Positions 13,128 to 19,463 of a stretch of 54,455 nucleotides of DNA are shown in pieces. The notes under the pieces are model-generated. The model was not told the origin of the DNA and searched no databases. It worked only from the letters and a program-made list of their open reading frames with translations. The stretch lies in contig CAZVGK010000025.1 of the NCBI GenBank assembly GCA_964626665.1, positions 1 through 54,455 of the forward strand, in the 5' to 3' direction. Within the stretch, counting starts at the first letter, position 1; every line of letters starts with the position of its first letter. Made by a program: the position numbers and the translations under genes. This stretch comes from an uncultured Gemmatimonadota bacterium (GTDB lineage Bacteria; SM23-81; DAOVCL01).

Positions 13128-13633
13128 AATCAGAGGAAACTCATCTTTTTCCTATATTTCCTTGAAAGCAGAAAAGTCTATTTTTTGCTTGACAATTCTA
13201 TATCTTTGATGTTAACTTTATATTTTAAATAACAGGATTTCTTTATTTTTTTTGGACAGGCCTAAAGAATAGCGAAGCTTCGCCTTCCCGGCCCGGGACG
13301 AGCAAACCGTCGAGCTATGGCAGCATAAACTGGGCGAAGCTTCGAATGTAAAATTCACCCCGTTAAATTTTTGTAGGTTTCAAAAGGTTAAGTCCTTCTT
13401 CAATTTTTGTTTCGCCTCTAATTTTCTTGGTTGAACCTACTATTTAACGGGGTAAAGAATGTAGAATTAAGAATGAAAAAACCTGCAGCCAAGGGGCCTG
13501 GGTCTAAGCTCATTGTCCACCCTTTTCTCTCTGCCCCCAAAACTTGACATAAATTTTAAGACTTTGCCTTATGAAGATGAATAGTTCCCACATTTGGCTT
13601 CCTCCAACGCCATTTCAGATGTCCAGGCGAAAG

Positions 13634-13982
13634 CAGCTTTCCGAGGCTGCCCTGGAAATCTTGAGTAGGTATGGGAAAGAACATAAACCCTCCAGATCTT
13701 TATTCCCAGGCTCTAAGAAGGAAAAGCATATTACAATCAGAACTGTTCAGCGAATCTTTGAGTCTGCCCGCAAAAATTCAGGGGTCAGAAAAACACTAAG
13801 TGGCTATAGCTTAAGGCATTCATTTGCTATCCATCTACTGGAAAGCTGCATAGACCTTATATTCAAAAACTACAGAAATATATACACATGTTAGTAAAAA
13901 ATCTTTTGGGAACATCGTTAGTCCCTTAGATAATTTAGAGACTATGGGAGTTGAAAATAAATATGAGAAAGAGCAACTATAG
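13634..13982 (+). pseudogene. C-terminal remnant of a tyrosine recombinase (integron-associated/XerD-like)
   Basis: LFPG..HITIRTVQRIF..SG..YSLRHSFAIHLLE.. then a frameshifted SKTTEIYTHVS..IVSPLD; N-terminal half and the IQELLGH box are deleted; catalytic His of HxLR reads Tyr. Confidence 0.85.
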
Positions 13983-13987
13983 TGAAG

Positions 13988-14066
13988 TATATCCGAAGTT
14001 TACTTCGGATATAACACTATATTGGAGGTATATCCGCAGTTAACTGCGGATATAAACGAGTTAGGC
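13988..14066 (+). other. attI-like recombination site
   Basis: Two related 26-bp palindromes (13988-14013, 14029-14054) then core GTTAGGC at 14060, whose extension is complementary to the end of the first cassette. Confidence 0.65.
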
Positions 14067-14098
14067 AAAATAGCAAGGAATGAAAAGATAGAATCAAG

Positions 14099-14485
14099 AT
14101 GAAAGAAATTGATTACAGATTTATTGGCGCCTGTGGTCTATATTGTGGTGAATGTGATATATACCTCGCCTTCAAAAACAACGACCCTCAGCTCAAAGAA
14201 GAAATTGCCAAAGCTCACAATCTCAAAACCTCTTATGTTCATTGTGATGGTTGTTGGGGAGATTTTTCCAAAATATGGGGTATTGAATGGCAGGAAGGTG
14301 GCAAGACCTGCAAAATAAGAAAGTGTGCTGAAAGACATCATATTCATGTATGTATTGAATGTTCAAATTTCCCTTGCCAGATGCTTGATGAATTTCACAA
14401 AACGGGCTATCAGAAGGCAAGGAAAAACCTTTTCAGGATGAAAGAGATTGGCGTGGGGAAATGGCTCAGAGAGATACAGAAGTAA
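14099..14485 (+). CDS. DUF3795 Cys-rich protein (cassette 1)
   Basis: ACGLYCGEC, CDGC, CKIRKCA and CIECSNFPC motifs. Confidence 0.85.
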   Translation: MKEIDYRFIGACGLYCGECDIYLAFKNNDPQLKEEIAKAHNLKTSYVHCDGCWGDFSKIWGIEWQEGGKTCKIRKCAERHHIHVCIECSNFPCQMLDEFHKTGYQKARKNLFRMKEIGVGKWLREIQK

Positions 14486-14494
14486 TGCTACTTC

Positions 14495-14586
14495 GCCTAA
14501 CACAGCATAAAAGGTTCGTGCCTAAAGGCACTCACCCAAATCCTTCGCTAACGCTCATGACTTCTTTTATGCTGGGAACGTTATCT
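14495..14586 (+). other. attC-like site 1
   Basis: GCCTAAC ... GTTATCT with inner inverted repeat CAGCATAAAAG/CTTTTATGCTG. Confidence 0.75.
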
Positions 14587-14626
14587 GCTATTGGCTTAAA
14601 TACACATTAAAGCGCAGGGAGATCGA

Positions 14627-14824
14627 ATGAGGCAACAAGTGATATTTAATACAGATCGACTCGCCAAGCAATTCAAGATTGCAAAAAGCGATTATGAACA
14701 GCTCAAAAGCTCCGTTCGGGAAGAATTTCCTAATGATGAGATGATGTATCAACTACATCTCATGCGCTCTATTCGTTCGTTTGGAGCGAAAAAGAGAGAG
14801 GTAGTCAAGCAGGAAGCAATGTGA
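14627..14824 (+). CDS. Putative antitoxin (cassette 2)
   Basis: 65 aa; 4-bp overlap with the downstream PIN gene. Confidence 0.6.
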   Translation: MRQQVIFNTDRLAKQFKIAKSDYEQLKSSVREEFPNDEMMYQLHLMRSIRSFGAKKREVVKQEAM

Positions 14825-15282
14825 ATACAAGCATACCTCCTAAACGCCTATATCTTGATACATCTGTCATCAGTGCATTCTTTGATCAACGAGCACCTGA
14901 ACGCAAGCGGATGACTGAAGAGTTTTGGCAAAGTCTGAATATCCACAAAGTATTCATCTCAACTCTTGTTCTGGAGGAGTTGGATGCGACGCAGGACTAT
15001 CTACGCACAAAGATGCATGAAAAAGTCAAAGATTTTCCCGTGTTGGAAGTTACTCAAGCTGCAGATGAACTCGCTGAGAGATATATGGACGAAGGTATTT
15101 TCCCAGAAAGATACCGAGACGATGCTGTGCATGTAGCTGTGACGACACCTAACCACATTGGATTCATAGTTAGTTGGAATTTCAAACATTTAGTGAAAGT
15201 ACGGACGCGTAAGGCTGTTAATCTTGCGAATGCTCTGGCTGGTTATCCCTCAATTGAAATCATAGCGCCACCTGAGTTGTAG
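14821..15282 (+). CDS. PIN-domain (VapC-like) toxin (cassette 2)
   Basis: LYLDTSVISA, DDAVHVAV, IVSWNFKHLV and I.IIAPPEL motifs. Confidence 0.88.
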   Translation: MNTSIPPKRLYLDTSVISAFFDQRAPERKRMTEEFWQSLNIHKVFISTLVLEELDATQDYLRTKMHEKVKDFPVLEVTQAADELAERYMDEGIFPERYRDDAVHVAVTTPNHIGFIVSWNFKHLVKVRTRKAVNLANALAGYPSIEIIAPPEL

Positions 15283-15314
15283 GGATGACAGAACGGCGAA
15301 AGGAAGCCCACAGC

Positions 15315-15388
15315 ATCTAACAGCGTGTTTGCGGCTCGCTTCGTTCGCCCAAATGCTTCGCACGTCGCAAAGCCCGATACCGTTATCT
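15315..15388 (+). other. attC-like site 2
   Basis: ATCTAAC ... GTTATCT with inner TTTGCGGC/GTCGCAAA arms. Confidence 0.65.
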
Positions 15389-15429
15389 GACATCCGGCTT
15401 CATAGAGATAGTACAAATGCGGTGTTTTA

Positions 15430-15903
15430 ATGAAAGAATCAATATATCTTGAGACAACAGTTGTAAGCTATTATACTTCTAAACCCAACCGAGACATCAT
15501 AGCTCTTGCTCATCAGGAGATTACACGACAATGGTGGCCTATAGTTATAAGGCAATATAATTTTTTCATCTCTGAGGTTGTAGTTGAAGAAGCTGATTTT
15601 GGTGACGTAGAGGCAGCCAAAAAAAGACTGGAAGAACTAAAAGATATTCCTCATCTGGAATTAAACGATAAGGTTGAGGAAATGGCTCAAGTTTATATGG
15701 AAAGATTGGAGATTCCAGAAAAATCTTTTCGTGATGCTGCTCATCTTGCTGTTGCCTGTGTACATAACATTGATTATCTTGTAACCTGGAATTGTACTCA
15801 TCTTGCTAATGGTGAAGCTATTAAGAAATTGATGAAGATAAATGAATCCCTTGGTATTCATACACCAATTATTTGTACACCAGAAGAGTTAATGGAGGTG
15901 TAA
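15430..15903 (+). CDS. PIN-domain (VapC-like) toxin (cassette 3)
   Basis: IYLETTVVSY, DAAHLAVA, YLVTWNCTHLAN and IICTPEEL motifs. Confidence 0.88.
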   Translation: MKESIYLETTVVSYYTSKPNRDIIALAHQEITRQWWPIVIRQYNFFISEVVVEEADFGDVEAAKKRLEELKDIPHLELNDKVEEMAQVYMERLEIPEKSFRDAAHLAVACVHNIDYLVTWNCTHLANGEAIKKLMKINESLGIHTPIICTPEELMEV

Positions 15904-15906
15904 GCC

Positions 15907-16089
15907 ATGTGGAAAGATCCAATTATTCAAGATGTCCGCAAAGCAGGTGAAGAGCTTGCAAAACAAGCAAATTATGACCTGCACATCTTCTTTCAAAACT
16001 TGCGGAATAATGAAAAGAAACGGAACCCTAAAGTTATTTCAAAAGCGCCGGGTAAAGAGGTGCCTTTAAAGGCGCCAGACGTCAGATAA
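15907..16089 (+). CDS. Putative antitoxin (cassette 3)
   Basis: MWKDPIIQDVRKA..LA..ANYDL, the small-gene type that follows this PIN subfamily; GGAGG RBS. Confidence 0.7.
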   Translation: MWKDPIIQDVRKAGEELAKQANYDLHIFFQNLRNNEKKRNPKVISKAPGKEVPLKAPDVR

Positions 16090-16208
16090 CACAGCATATA
16101 CGCTACGGGCTAATGCCCTGGCCCTCCTGCCTGTGCCGTTGGCACGGCAGACAGGTCGGGACATTGTTCCCTTCGATCGCAACGTCATATATGCTGGAAA
16201 AGTTAGGC
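16084..16208 (+). other. attC-like site 3
   Basis: AGATAAC ... GTTAGGC with inner CAGCATATA/TATATGCTG arms; contains an inserted 30-bp palindrome. Confidence 0.75.
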
Positions 16209-16241
16209 GAAATTGCGTTTAAGTCATAGGATAAAATTATG

Positions 16242-16271
16242 TTGACAAGGCATCATTTGATGTCCTATAAT
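16242..16271 (+). promoter_or_regulatory. Cassette-borne sigma70 promoter with nearby operator-like inverted repeat
   Basis: Perfect TTGACA-18 nt-TATAAT; TGTTC-N9-GAACA just downstream. Confidence 0.65.
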
Positions 16272-16312
16272 ATAAGGCAGTTGTTCCATATAATAGAACA
16301 GAGGATGGGGAC

Positions 16313-16471
16313 ATGTTGATACCAGTTAGAAGAAAAAAAATATTGGAAGTTTTTTTGAAGAGTCCTTTTAAAGAAGTACACCTTAGAGAAATCGCTCGGT
16401 TATCAAAAGTTTCATTGAACAATGTGGACAATTCGCTGCATAAACATAGACATGTACGAAAAACTCTTTGA
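16313..16471 (+). pseudogene. Truncated winged-HTH protein
   Basis: KILEVFLKSPFKEVHLREIARLSKVSLNNV, resembling the wHTH N-terminus of wHTH-nucleotidyltransferase antitoxins; ends after 52 aa. Confidence 0.55.
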
Positions 16472-16742
16472 AGAGACAGGAGTTGACAATTTGCCCTTGG
16501 GTTTCGATTTGAGATTTTCTTTTCCTGCTACAAAACCTAAAGGAGCTGCGCATTTGAGATTTATAAGAGGGAAGAAAAGGGATGTAGATACTTTAATATG
16601 GGAAACCCAAGTTCAATTAGTTGGGGATGACGCACCCAAAGACAAAGATCAAATTATTGATTGGGGAGCTGAAGCACACATATTAACAGATGATTGGTTC
16701 TTTTGGATGATAGAAGGAGAACTATTAGAGAGGTTTGAATGA
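16422..16742 (+). CDS. Hypothetical protein, probably a 5'-truncated fragment
   Basis: 106-aa ORF ending LLERFE with 4-bp overlap into the next gene; no credible RBS. Confidence 0.4.
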   Translation: MWTIRCINIDMYEKLFEETGVDNLPLGFDLRFSFPATKPKGAAHLRFIRGKKRDVDTLIWETQVQLVGDDAPKDKDQIIDWGAEAHILTDDWFFWMIEGELLERFE

Positions 16743-17163
16743 TGCATGAACAAACAATACAAGTCATTACATACCCGGGTTATCCGATTCAATACCCATC
16801 CAGTCCAAGTACAGGTATGGAGGAAATAGATGCGGATATATGGGATAGTTTATTATCTATTTGGATTCGGGAGGATCGGCTTAAGAAACCCTTTTATTAT
16901 AGCTTGATTCCCTTGTTAAAAATTGATTGGTCGTCTGTTTGGCCAGATTTTGAAATAGAAAGCGAAACATCGCTCGAAGAAGTGACAAAAAAATTATCCC
17001 GGGATATATTTCTGAAGAAGATATTGCTATGGAAATGGTAGAACACGATTTCATTGTAAAGATACCACCAAAGAAGAAGTATAAAATACAAGTTCTTGTG
17101 AAAAGTATTAAAAAGGGAGAACCTAGGGTAATTGAATCTAATGAATTTTCGGTTATAGATTAA
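16739..17163 (+). pseudogene. Hypothetical gene, probably frameshifted at an A7 run
   Basis: A shift at 16987-16993 continues as YISEEDIAMEMVEHDFIVKIPPKKKY..ID*, ending 10 bp before the next ATG. Confidence 0.45.
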
Positions 17164-17173
17164 GATACATGCT

Positions 17174-17985
17174 ATGAAAGATTATCCATGGTATGAAGTG
17201 GTTGATGGTGATGAGCTTCTTCAAGGAGATATTATAAATTCATGTCCTCTAATAATCCCGCCAGCTATTTTAAAATCAAATAAATTAGGTTCATCTCCAT
17301 TTTAGTTGATGGCATAGATTATTTATTTACAGATAGTTGCCCAGAATGTGGAATTTGAAAATGGCCAGCTTTTGATCTTTAAAGTTACCTAAATCATTGT
17401 TTTTTAAATTCATAGAGCGGAGAATTTAGTGAAAATCATCAAATGCTAATTGTTTGATTAACACCTGTTTAGCGACCTACAGATTTTGCATCTTCGGGTA
17501 TTGCAAGCGAAATAGTTCGTCATACAACTCCCAATTACTTTATGAGTTACGAAAGATCTGATCAACTAAAATGGAGAAGAACCATAAATTACAGGTTGAG
17601 GTAATCGAATATGATGTAATAGTTATGAGCCAATCTGGCGATCTTGTCGAAAAGAAACTTGAGTCAGTTCTTGTTTGCCCAATCTGGAAGTTAAATGAAT
17701 TTGAAAACAAGAACCCATCTTATAAGAGTCCAAAAATGAAAGAATCATTAAGACGAGGGTATTTGCCAGGTTATCATCTTTTAAATAGATGGATTTGAAA
17801 CAGAGTATTTAGTGGTTGATTTTCGCGGTGTTTATAGTGTTACTTTTGATTTCCTTGTAGAATTAGCCCAAAAGAGGGATAAAAGACTACGTCTATTACC
17901 ACCTTACAGAGAACATTTATCTCAAGCTTTTGCAAGATTCTTTATGAGAGTTGGATTACCTGTTGATATACCTCCTTTCAAGTGA
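17174..17985 (+). pseudogene. Conserved hypothetical gene disrupted by a MITE and a later frameshift
   Basis: MKDYPWYEVV..LLQGD..KSNKL | QVEVIEYDVIVMSQSGDL rejoins in frame once the MITE and one TSD are removed; tail REHLSQAFARFFMRVGLPVDIP* lies in a shifted frame. Confidence 0.8.
17288..17583. mobile_element. 296-bp MITE / internally deleted IS
   Basis: 23-bp TIRs GGTTCATCTCCATTTTAGTTGAT / ATCAACTAAAATGGAGAAGAACC (1 mismatch); 8-bp TSD ATAAATTA at 17280-17287 and 17584-17591. Confidence 0.92.
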
Positions 17986-18006
17986 GGGATATGAAAGGCA
18001 TCACTT

Positions 18007-18089
18007 CAATAACAGAACGTGTCTGGCTACGACTGACCCTCTGCTCAAATTCCTCTTTGGGGAACTTCAATATGCTCGAAACGTTAGGA
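18007..18089 (+). other. Degenerate attC-like site 4
   Basis: CAATAAC ... ATATGCTCGAAACGTTAGGA; right end resembles sites 1 and 3; left arm decayed. Confidence 0.5.
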
Positions 18090-18248
18090 GACATTTTGGA
18101 AAGGGGAATTTGCTTTAGGTTTCACCTCCCCATAGGATTTACTACTCGAACTCCTTAGCTGTGGGAGTTGCCCTTCAGGCCAATTGGACTTGGATGATCA
18201 AACTTTTCAATCAAATTGGGAAAATCTTAATTGAAAGGATAGTATAGG

Positions 18249-19463
18249 ATGGAGAATTCCTTCAGATGGCCAACCATCGTTCTCCTATCATTTTTTGCCC
18301 TCTCAACCCTATTTCTTACCTATGAGGCCCCGGCTCAGATTCAACCGCCCGCCGGGGATAGGCCAGAGGTAGCAGACACCATCCCTCCTCTTCCCCCCAC
18401 CAATCTCCAGGCTGTGGATACCCCTAACGATGCGGGGAAAAGAATTACCCTCACCTGGACCAAATCCCCCGATGATGGCGCTGGAGCAAAGGATGTGAAG
18501 AATTACCAGATTCTAAGGGCAGAAAGGAGGGATGGCCCATACGAGATGATTGCCGAACTGGCCATCGGGGCGGTAAGGTATGTTGATACCACCGCAAAAG
18601 ACGGAGTTGACTACTACTACAAGGTAAGCGTCTCGGATGGAATAAATACCTCCGAGGCCCCTCCCAGCCAGGCGGTGTGCTCCAAAGCTCAGTGGTTTAA
18701 CCTCAAGAGGTTAAATATGCTGATTGCTGGTATTATCCTCTCTCTGGGCATAATCTATTTCATCAATAAGGCTAAAGCTGGAGGGGAACTCTATATCCGC
18801 AAGATAGCGGGACTGGATGCCGTAAATGAGGCCGTGGGACGGGCCACGGAGATGGGGAGAAAGGTATTTTTCATCCCTGGGATTATGGACTTGGACAATG
18901 TTCAGACCATAGCTGGGCTGAGCATTTTGGGGCAGGTGGCCAGGCTTACAGCTGAATACGGGACCGAATTGGAGGTGCCCGTCTGTAGGTCGGTGGTGAT
19001 GGTCACCGGAAGGGAGACGGTCAAGGAGGCCTACCTGGATACTGGCCATCCAGATGCCTACCACGATGAGATCGTTCATTATCTCACAGATGACCAATTC
19101 GGATATGCTGCCGGCGTAGATGGGTTGATGCTCAGGGAGAAGCCGGCAGCCATCTTTTATCAGGGAGCTTTCTATGCTGAATCCCTCATCTTAGCTGAGA
19201 CAGGTTTTTCTGTGGGGGCTATTCAGATCGCCGGGACGGGTATGCCCTCTCAACTGCCGTTTTTCATCACCGCTTGTGATTACACTCTGATAGGAGAGGA
19301 GCTTTTTGCCGCCTCTGCTTATCTCTCTCGGGAACCCAGGTCCCTGGGCAGTATCAAGGGACAGGATTTGGGCAAGGCAATTATTCTGGTAATCCTCATT
19401 TTGGGTGTGGTCCTGGAAACCTTCGGATTCACCGGATTTTCCCAACTTTTCACCACCCAATAG
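18249..19463 (+). CDS. Module gene A1: signal peptide + FN3 + TM + DUF6754-like domain + TM
   Basis: PPTNLQAVDTPNDAG..ITLTW..Y.I.R..YYYKV (FN3); IAGLDAVNEAVGRATEMG; QLPFFITACDYTLIGEE. Confidence 0.85.
   Translation: MENSFRWPTIVLLSFFALSTLFLTYEAPAQIQPPAGDRPEVADTIPPLPPTNLQAVDTPNDAGKRITLTWTKSPDDGAGAKDVKNYQILRAERRDGPYEMIAELAIGAVRYVDTTAKDGVDYYYKVSVSDGINTSEAPPSQAVCSKAQWFNLKRLNMLIAGIILSLGIIYFINKAKAGGELYIRKIAGLDAVNEAVGRATEMGRKVFFIPGIMDLDNVQTIAGLSILGQVARLTAEYGTELEVPVCRSVVMVTGRETVKEAYLDTGHPDAYHDEIVHYLTDDQFGYAAGVDGLMLREKPAAIFYQGAFYAESLILAETGFSVGAIQIAGTGMPSQLPFFITACDYTLIGEELFAASAYLSREPRSLGSIKGQDLGKAIILVILILGVVLETFGFTGFSQLFTTQ

Follow-up and report, generated by a model that had tools for sequence, protein, structure and literature searches.

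Can an array of integron cassettes be headed by a tyrosine recombinase that is devoid of the insertion of the integron integrase (IntI)? The question was raised by a locus in a 54,455-nucleotide stretch of DNA from an uncultured Gemmatimonadota bacterium (GenBank contig CAZVGK010000025.1, assembly GCA_964626665.1), and this whole stretch is called the window below. In our study, the window was found to contain a tyrosine-recombinase pseudogene at nucleotides 13622–13982 on the plus strand, followed on the same strand by a cassette array at 14060–18089 with four attC-type hairpin sites. We consider it probable that an integron-like cassette platform has decayed here, and that its recombinase belonged to an insertion-less clade related to IntI and XerA.

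The pseudogene was compared with its closest intact homolog, P0001 (363 amino acids, 80% identity to the window fragment). The first piece of the pseudogene (13622–13858, plus strand) corresponded in tblastn to residues 240–318 of P0001 with 76% identity, matched Pfam PF00589 (E 5e-12) and contained the HxxR box (LRHSFAIHLLE). The second piece (13863–13982, plus strand, +1 frame) contained the catalytic tyrosine motif (TEIYTHV) and the SPLD tail; residues 330–354 of P0001 were matched here at 13863–13937 with 68% identity. By tblastn, residues 1–239 and 319–329 of P0001 were without a counterpart in the pseudogene, and the 11 missing residues 319–329 include LLGH. The truncated 5' end adjoins a repeat of about 310 nucleotides at 13270–13579, which resembles a miniature inverted-repeat transposable element (MITE); a blastn search with 13150–13620 gave 63 matches across the contigs of the genome. 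The recombinase has lost its residues 1–239 beside this MITE copy, together with the 11 residues that hold the LLGH histidine. The depth of metagenome contigs over 13270–13579 was 15–25 times that of the flanks, and variants of the repeat without about 100 nucleotides (13351–13456) were seen.

The absence of the IntI insertion, which had been predicted from the fragment, was confirmed in the intact homologs. These are about 363 amino acids long, match PF00589 and share the C-terminal SPLD tail with IntI; the catalytic R, K, HxxR, H and Y were invariant across 46 aligned family members. The I2 element of VchIntIA reads extrahelical bases. When P0001 was aligned with VchIntIA (2a3v), residues 88–248 corresponded to chain positions 10–172 and residues 273–353 to positions 239–319, so that the I2 region contained 24 residues in P0001 against 66 in VchIntIA (chain 173–238), about 42 residues having no counterpart. 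The integron integrase model TIGR02249 scored the intact members at 223–231 bits against a cut-off of 265 and skipped model positions 180–236, and PRK15417 gave 144–175 against a cut-off of 435. The XerA-type model NF040815 (cut-off 220) was passed by P0001 (251.2 bits), by an intact paralog from the window's own genome (contig C52, 238.6 bits) and by P0013 (230.4 bits), and the best sequence match of P0001 in the PDB was the XerA of P. abyssi (4a8e). The AlphaFold2 model of the C52 protein had a mean predicted local distance difference test score (pLDDT) of 89.6, and its nearest structure was VchIntIA 2a3v (E 1e-16), followed by XerA.

Most of the members were found to contain an extra N-terminal domain (residues 1–78) with a separate beta-beta-alpha-beta-beta-alpha-beta fold (pLDDT 88). 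The top Foldseek match of this domain was the HARP domain of SMARCAL1 (4o66), a weak match (E 0.11, template modelling score about 0.5), and other weak matches were the XPB damage-recognition domain and the N-terminal domains of T4 MotA and UvsW. Of 31 N-terminal segments, 16 were matched by Pfam HARP (PF07443) at E<=1; the best E-value was 8e-6, every match that was checked stayed under the gathering score, and the C52 protein reached 16.3 bits against a cut-off of 25. The domain is tentatively called HARP-like, and no HARP-like domain in a tyrosine recombinase was found described in non-exhaustive literature searches. In some members (L014:4827–5096, L093) a helix-turn-helix of the HTH_17 type was present ahead of the HARP-like domain, and the open frames of Bacteroidota members reached 450–610 amino acids, which suggests further N-terminal additions or miscalled starts.

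The stop codon of the pseudogene (13980–13982) was followed by two 26-nucleotide palindromes at 13988–14013 and 14029–14054 (repeat families D3 and I1), read as putative accessory binding sites of an attI-like site. The post-stop stretch with these palindromes folded as single-stranded DNA with z = -7.4, and the same layout was found on contigs C33, C52, C19 and C41 and in loci of other phyla. An attI-like core, AACGA-GTTAGGC, was present at 14055–14066 on the plus strand, and its G14060 lies 78 nucleotides after the stop codon. The GTTAGGC of the core and the R'' of the first attC (GCCTAAC) are exact reverse complements, and by junction logic the crossover would fall between G14060 and T14061. 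Contigs of four metagenome runs sharing the attI-like region part ways immediately past GTTA(G), at 14063/14064, which would agree with variable first cassettes, though paralogous attI sites could produce the same pattern.

The four attC sites of the window were all on the plus strand, and no further match of the attC covariance model was present elsewhere in the 54,455 nucleotides. attC1 (14495–14586, E 1e-11, 71.4 bits) and attC3 (16084–16208, E 1e-6, 47.3 bits) were training sequences of the model, whereas attC2 (15315–15388, E 0.005) and attC4 (18007–18089, E 0.14, weak and degenerate) were independent of the training. The original prediction had pointed to complementary cassette ends and to an array lying 3' of the recombinase on the same strand, and both were borne out. 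GTTAGGCAAAATAGCA (14060–14075) was 88% complementary to TGCTACTTCGCCTAAC (14486–14501) over 16 nucleotides (pair I22), and GTTATCTGACATCCGGC (15382–15398) was 88% complementary to GCCAGACGTCAGATAAC (16074–16090) over 17 nucleotides (pair I13).

The original prediction named two outcomes that would speak against it, an IntI insertion in the intact homologs and homologs that are not systematically followed by cassette arrays; both were checked, and neither occurred. At least 585 relatives were present among species-representative genomes, and the best 80 loci were analysed; these belonged to Nitrospirota, Bacillota, Bacteroidota, Spirochaetota, Thermodesulfobacteriota, Ignavibacteriota, Chlorobiota and five archaeal lineages. 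The covariance model was built from 14 attC-like sites, two of them from the window, and it caught the attC class of about 130 nucleotides weakly. At E<=1 the model found 51 sites in 727,464 nucleotides searched on both strands, 37 of them outside the training set. All 51 were located downstream of the recombinase and on its strand, 47 in 23 of the 80 related loci and four in the window. A hairpin scan gave 0.375 (plus) and 0.284 (minus) matches per kilobase downstream, against 0.060 and 0.050 upstream. Where at least 3 kilobases of downstream sequence were available, 24 of 30 loci contained attC-like sites by the model or the scan.

Most loci contained two to four palindromic or direct repeats after the stop codon, followed by a GTTRRRY core. 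In 23 of 24 loci, the stretch from the stop codon to the first attC contained the reverse complement of the R'' of that attC (at +27 to +138 in 17 of them); the chance expectation, calculated from the number of GTT sites, was about 3–23% per locus. Of 27 pairs of neighbouring attCs, 16 obeyed the rule for circular cassettes, the R' of one being the reverse complement of the R'' of the following one (5 of 5 in L031, 3 of 3 in L038), and the failing pairs mostly span long gaps, probably with a missed site. The stems were found to covary: 92.1% of the cells were paired, against 64.9% in shuffles and 24–38% in slid controls, in an alignment that was fitted to the model, and in the L-stem 12 of 12 pairs changed on both sides. 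In the complete genome G007, about 30 of 46 model matches formed one run on the plus strand (2394209–2438539, about 44 kilobases), which begins about 0.9 kilobases past the recombinase gene (2392490–2393305). Halanaerobacter contained 67 model matches spread over many small contigs. The contig ended within 500 nucleotides downstream of the gene in 31 of the 80 loci and within 500 nucleotides upstream in 7; the contigs of L013, L028, L043, L061, L086 and L088 stop 0–2 nucleotides after GTT, and that of L078 stops 6 nucleotides after it.

Three other searches contributed little. An attC heuristic requiring complementarity of R'' and R' missed the sites of the window and performed at about the level of shuffles (32 versus 24 matches). 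Repeated 9-mers past the stop codon discriminated weakly (47 of 72 loci versus 22 control segments) and were not relied on. A search against Rfam gave no relevant family, the sole match being a chance microRNA (E 0.15).

Together with the anatomy of the window, these results give an intact platform as the recombinase gene and then, 27–138 nucleotides past its stop codon, two or three palindromic repeats and a core (AACGA)G/TTRRRY. Cassettes would be inserted at this core by recombination with their attC, and the array would grow co-oriented with the recombinase gene. The attCs are imperfect hairpins with RYYYAAC and GTTRRRY ends and an asymmetric loop (1–2 versus 5–6 nucleotides) between the R and L helices, their stems being kept by compensatory changes.

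Several observations weigh against reading the window in this way. The loci analysed are the best matches and not a random sample, the attC model was trained on sites of the same loci that it searched, and in 6 of the 30 loci with sufficient downstream sequence (L021, L026, L037, L051, L067 and L074) no attC was found by the model or the scan. The N-terminal domain is missing in some array-linked members, such as L056 and L068, and is therefore dispensable for the linkage to arrays. In the window itself, attC4 is degenerate and folded no better than shuffles (z = +0.56), and the ends of cassette 2 are only partly complementary (R' GTTATCT against GTTAGAT, the reverse complement of the next R''). 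The metagenome contigs, searched as contigs and not as raw reads, gave no recombination event and no support for excision. The only cassette-sized contig joint, from 14583 to 15318, was seen in one run with a side of 24 nucleotides and lies off the expected G/TT; neither this joint nor the differences in contig depth were used as evidence of excision. The genome of the window also contained several remnants of true IntI genes, which are C-terminal, pseudogenised and insertion-bearing (C59:361–591, C47:3254–3445, C5:14167–14632, C2:187319–187507, C4:42347–42502 and C28:42374–42487). They were co-oriented with direct repeats (GTTATAnGGAAACCATATAA-like) and a GTTRGSC core (GTTAGGC-type), followed by attC cassettes of canonical geometry, and a canonical IntI may have acted in trans in this genome in the past. 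Among the seven species genomes of the phylum in the collection, one contained an intact canonical IntI.

These pseudogenised IntI genes would suit an explanation by which a canonical IntI left behind or served the cassettes, as in any cluster of attC sites lacking integron-integrases (CALIN), and the recombinase remnant is an unrelated neighbour such as the relic of an integrative element. The related loci speak against an unrelated neighbour: the same family occupied the same position and orientation in 23 loci of many phyla and the core by the stop codon complemented the first attC in 23 of 24. Five array-bearing genomes, Desulfitobacterium sp. Sab5 (complete), Halanaerobacter, Arundinibacter, Algoriphagus and Halonatronum, were checked for IntI; TIGR02249 gave no match above its cut-off in any of the five, and the best match in each was the family gene. 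The attCs beside IntI also differ from those of the family in their spacer, as described below. We regard the explanation by a canonical IntI as very unlikely.

The attCs of the family contained 1–2 nucleotides between the AAC of R'' and the stem and 5–6 nucleotides between the stem and the GTT of R'. Downstream of the family genes, the (R'',R') spacer was (1,5) in 17 sites, (2,5) in 12, (5,9) in 7 and (3,6) in 4. By a heuristic scan that permitted wide offsets, the spacer difference was +3 or +4 in 45 of 65 family sites, and (5,5) was found in none; the geometry is therefore not the canonical one with a near-symmetric central spacer. The same scan of 80 metagenome loci of insertion-bearing IntI gave mostly (5,5), (5,6)/(6,5) and (2,3)/(3,2), and the (6,9) cases in the IntI locus L154 stem from a duplicated AAC anchor. 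The arrays beside the true-IntI remnants of the window's genome also had a canonical-looking geometry. Since the wider spacer of the family follows the stem, the top strand carries the extra bases on its 3' arm, and the family may therefore read the strand opposite to that read by IntI; the top strand as its recombination substrate is a speculation.

The spacer also bears on whether the sites are used as folded single strands. A platform of the same anatomy could instead recombine double-stranded sites in the manner of Xer/dif, like pdif modules, and this would suit an enzyme that is devoid of the I2 element and passes the XerA family model, as well as palindromes of the attI-like site that resemble paired core-type binding sites. 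The attCs speak for structure: their pairing is kept by compensatory change with little conservation of sequence, their lengths range from 64 to about 184 nucleotides, and the asymmetry of the spacer is conserved, all of which are hallmarks of structure-specific sites. The best fold match of the enzyme is IntI, and its N-terminal domain is similar to domains with affinity for branched or forked DNA. Recombination of double-stranded sites is unlikely in our judgement; a recombinase acting at G/TT on folded single strands would fit the attCs better.

The intact paralog on contig C52 (363 amino acids, 50% identity to the window fragment) is followed by three palindromes and AACGAGTTAGGCGAAATT, 330 nucleotides from the contig end, and no overlap was found between this contig end and the other contigs of the genome. 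Its attI-like site is near-identical to that of the window. The claim of decay at this locus stands for the pseudogene and has to be qualified for the genome, where an intact enzyme with such a site is present. Any remaining cassette traffic in the window would depend on the C52 paralog, since the recombinase of the window is truncated, and the intact enzyme may serve several platforms in trans, the window's included. Orphan attI-like sites of the family type, with palindromes and core and without a recombinase gene, were found directly after chromosomal genes on C33 (about 18150–18260, minus strand), on C41 (21389–21470, plus strand, then a large methyltransferase-like gene) and on C19 (4432–4524, minus strand, core mutated to GAGATAGGC). 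Cassettes follow these recombinase-less sites on C33, C19 and C41, and attCs of the family type were also present on C33, C22 and C13.

Several copies and orphan sites right after chromosomal genes in one genome would also be expected if the recombinase and its palindromes were a selfish module targeting GTTRRRY or attC, a parasite comparable to the IS1111-attC elements or the group IIC-attC introns. The family is patchily distributed over Bacteria and Archaea, identity between the two domains is about 60%, and plasmid-borne copies exist, all of which points the same way. In the loci examined, the module always stood at the promoter-proximal end of the array and in no case at an internal or distal position; no second module boundary and no target duplication were seen, and no other candidate recombinase for the arrays was found in the five genomes that were checked. 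A selfish module is highly improbable on this evidence, and a recombinase that heads its own cassette platform remains our preferred reading. An IS91-associated integrase was also weighed and dropped: no IS91 transposase followed the homologs examined, and ISVsa3 was present only in the context of the tet(X3) plasmid.

Two plasmids were of note among the relatives. In a Chryseobacterium plasmid (L192, NZ_CP041688.1, 5980–13020), a full-length family member is followed by co-oriented small genes, with attC matches at E 0.0015, 0.05 and 1.0 and with an IS110-family transposase and a group II intron reverse transcriptase, both of them commonly found as guests in integron arrays. In the tet(X3) plasmid of Acinetobacter indicus (L191, NZ_CP041297.1, 4046–6200), a recombinase of 221 amino acids ('xerD/tpnF') was located upstream of tet(X3); it is a truncated relative of the family with 54.5% identity to P0001 residues 121–352. 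A palindrome lies about 170 nucleotides past its stop codon, followed by CCACTT-GTTATGT 13 nucleotides before the start of tet(X3), similar to the attI-like layout of L026. An imperfect hairpin begins from TACTAAC past the stop codon of tet(X3) and gave no score with the attC model. Judged from these motifs, tet(X3) may lie at an attI-like junction.

The position of the family among tyrosine recombinases was examined by a quick IQ-TREE analysis of 99 proteins (75 family members, 14 IntI, 9 bacterial XerC/D-like proteins and 1 archaeal XerA), from which 15 of the 80 loci with open reading frames (ORFs) under 300 amino acids were left out. The bacterial Xer proteins were split from the rest of the tree with a Shimodaira–Hasegawa-like approximate likelihood ratio test value of 99, and IntI was monophyletic on a long stem with a support of 100. 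In the free tree, IntI and XerA were nested inside the family with weak support; a tree constrained to hold the family as one clade was 43.75 log-likelihood units better (p of the approximately unbiased test 0.88). Because the constrained tree was better than the free quick tree, we make no claim that IntI arose within the family. From these sequences the family appears as its own clade, nearer to IntI and XerA than to XerC/D. The original prediction of an Xer-like clade driving a non-canonical capture system was right about an insertion-less clade with arrays and has to be amended in this respect.

The context of the genes argues against a single-copy dimer resolvase acting at dif. The family shares with XerA (NF040815) the score above the NCBIfam cut-off and the best PDB match. 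It differs in that its bacterial members occur together with XerC/D-like genes, are multi-copy or pseudogenised, carry an N-terminal extension and always have attI-like repeats and cassette arrays as neighbours. A separate XerA of 282 amino acids was also present in a Methanosarcinales genome with a family member.

The cassettes of the window were all on the plus strand. Cassette 1 (14061–14580) contained a DUF3795 ORF (14099–14485, Pfam E 9e-17) and attC1. Cassette 2 (14581–15382) contained an ORF of 65 amino acids (14627–14824), a PIN-like ORF of 153 amino acids (14821–15282; PIN match E 5e-4, under the Pfam cut-off) and attC2, and its two ORFs are likely a toxin-antitoxin pair. Cassette 3 (15383–16202), the ends of which are the complementary pair I13, contained a PIN-like ORF of 157 amino acids (15430–15903; E 1e-4, also under the cut-off), an ORF of 60 amino acids (15907–16089) and attC3. 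The terminal composite region of about 1.9 kilobases (16203–18089) contained several short ORFs, a promoter-like site, a TIGR04255-family fragment (16422–16742), a MITE and attC4. The promoter-like site, a perfect TTGACA-18-TATAAT of the sigma-70 type at 16242–16271, is located at the start of this fourth cassette region and was the sole 12/12 match in 5.2 kilobases. NCBIfam gave no name for the cassette proteins other than the TIGR04255 fragment. The MITE (17288–17583, about 300 nucleotides) has inverted ends of 23 nucleotides that are 96% complementary, and it interrupts a cassette ORF; seven other copies or relatives were present in the genome, two of them at 89–92% identity. A contig joint in two metagenome runs leaps over 17310–17561, inside this MITE.

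In every other architectural feature that we tested the system matches integrons, the exceptions being the IntI test, the orientation of the gene and the attC spacer. Canonical integrons (IntI1, VchIntIA) share with it the catalytic residues, the fold (best match VchIntIA), the SPLD-type tail, attC hairpins with RYYYAAC and GTTRRRY, accessory repeats in attI, toxin-antitoxin cassettes and IS110 and group II intron guests. They differ in that the family is devoid of I2, scores below the cut-offs of TIGR02249 and PRK15417, is co-oriented instead of divergent and has the asymmetric spacer.

The co-orientation noted in the original prediction is present and is not the novel part: insertion-bearing IntIs transcribed toward an attI directly 3' of the gene, with co-oriented cassettes and GTTRRRY junctions, are described for Treponema and Archaea in two reports (PMC3607928, PMC9668308), and the window's own genome holds remnants of that type. 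According to these and a third report (PMC4889954), those IntIs carry the additional domain, whereas the family is without it, mostly has an extra N-terminal domain, forms its own clade and has the 1–2/5–6 attC spacer. Measured by the definition of a reverse integron, co-orientation and a downstream attI were found and a bona fide IntI with the additional domain was not. Measured by that of an integron (Cury 2016), an attC cluster and an attI beside the gene were found, again without the additional domain that IntI carries near patch III. This domain is treated as defining and essential, and detection tools require it (PMC4889954, PMC9024848, PMC9668308). By the IntegronFinder definition (PMC4889954, PMC9024848), the arrays, including that of the window, would most likely be scored as CALINs; they differ from CALINs in not being orphans, with a recombinase gene and an attI-like site at their head.

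Neighbours of this kind were argued not to be IntI in Cury 2016 (PMC4889954), which also mentions four proteins that fall between IntI and Xer and have fewer than three attCs. Smyshlyaev 2021 calls the insertion 'not fully conserved' in an integron-like subgroup, and complete integrons are given as near-absent from Firmicutes in the IntegronFinder 2.0 report (PMC9024848). Non-exhaustive literature searches, with supplements outside their scope, gave no description tying an insertion-less recombinase to attC arrays. The lineage is widespread and apparently undescribed.

A broader reading, towards which we lean only slightly, is that the family represents a second, ancient integron-type lineage without I2, often equipped with a HARP-like domain binding DNA structures and using attCs with an asymmetric spacer. 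It would run large chromosomal and plasmid arrays in Bacillota, Bacteroidota, Nitrospirota, Spirochaetota, Thermodesulfobacteriota and Archaea, arrays that at present count as orphan CALINs, in phyla regarded as nearly devoid of integrons, and the 'xerD/tpnF' gene beside tet(X3) would be a truncated member. Assays already established for integrons could test the system directly. If an insertion-less clade does run attC arrays, many CALINs would have to be reconsidered, as would the seeming near-absence of integrons in Firmicutes and Bacteroidetes, and structure-specific recombination of attC would have another solution besides the I2 insertion. The family would then offer a comparative route to how integron recombination arose from Xer-like enzymes, and it would constitute a further route of cassette capture in phyla that serve as reservoirs for genes of clinical relevance.

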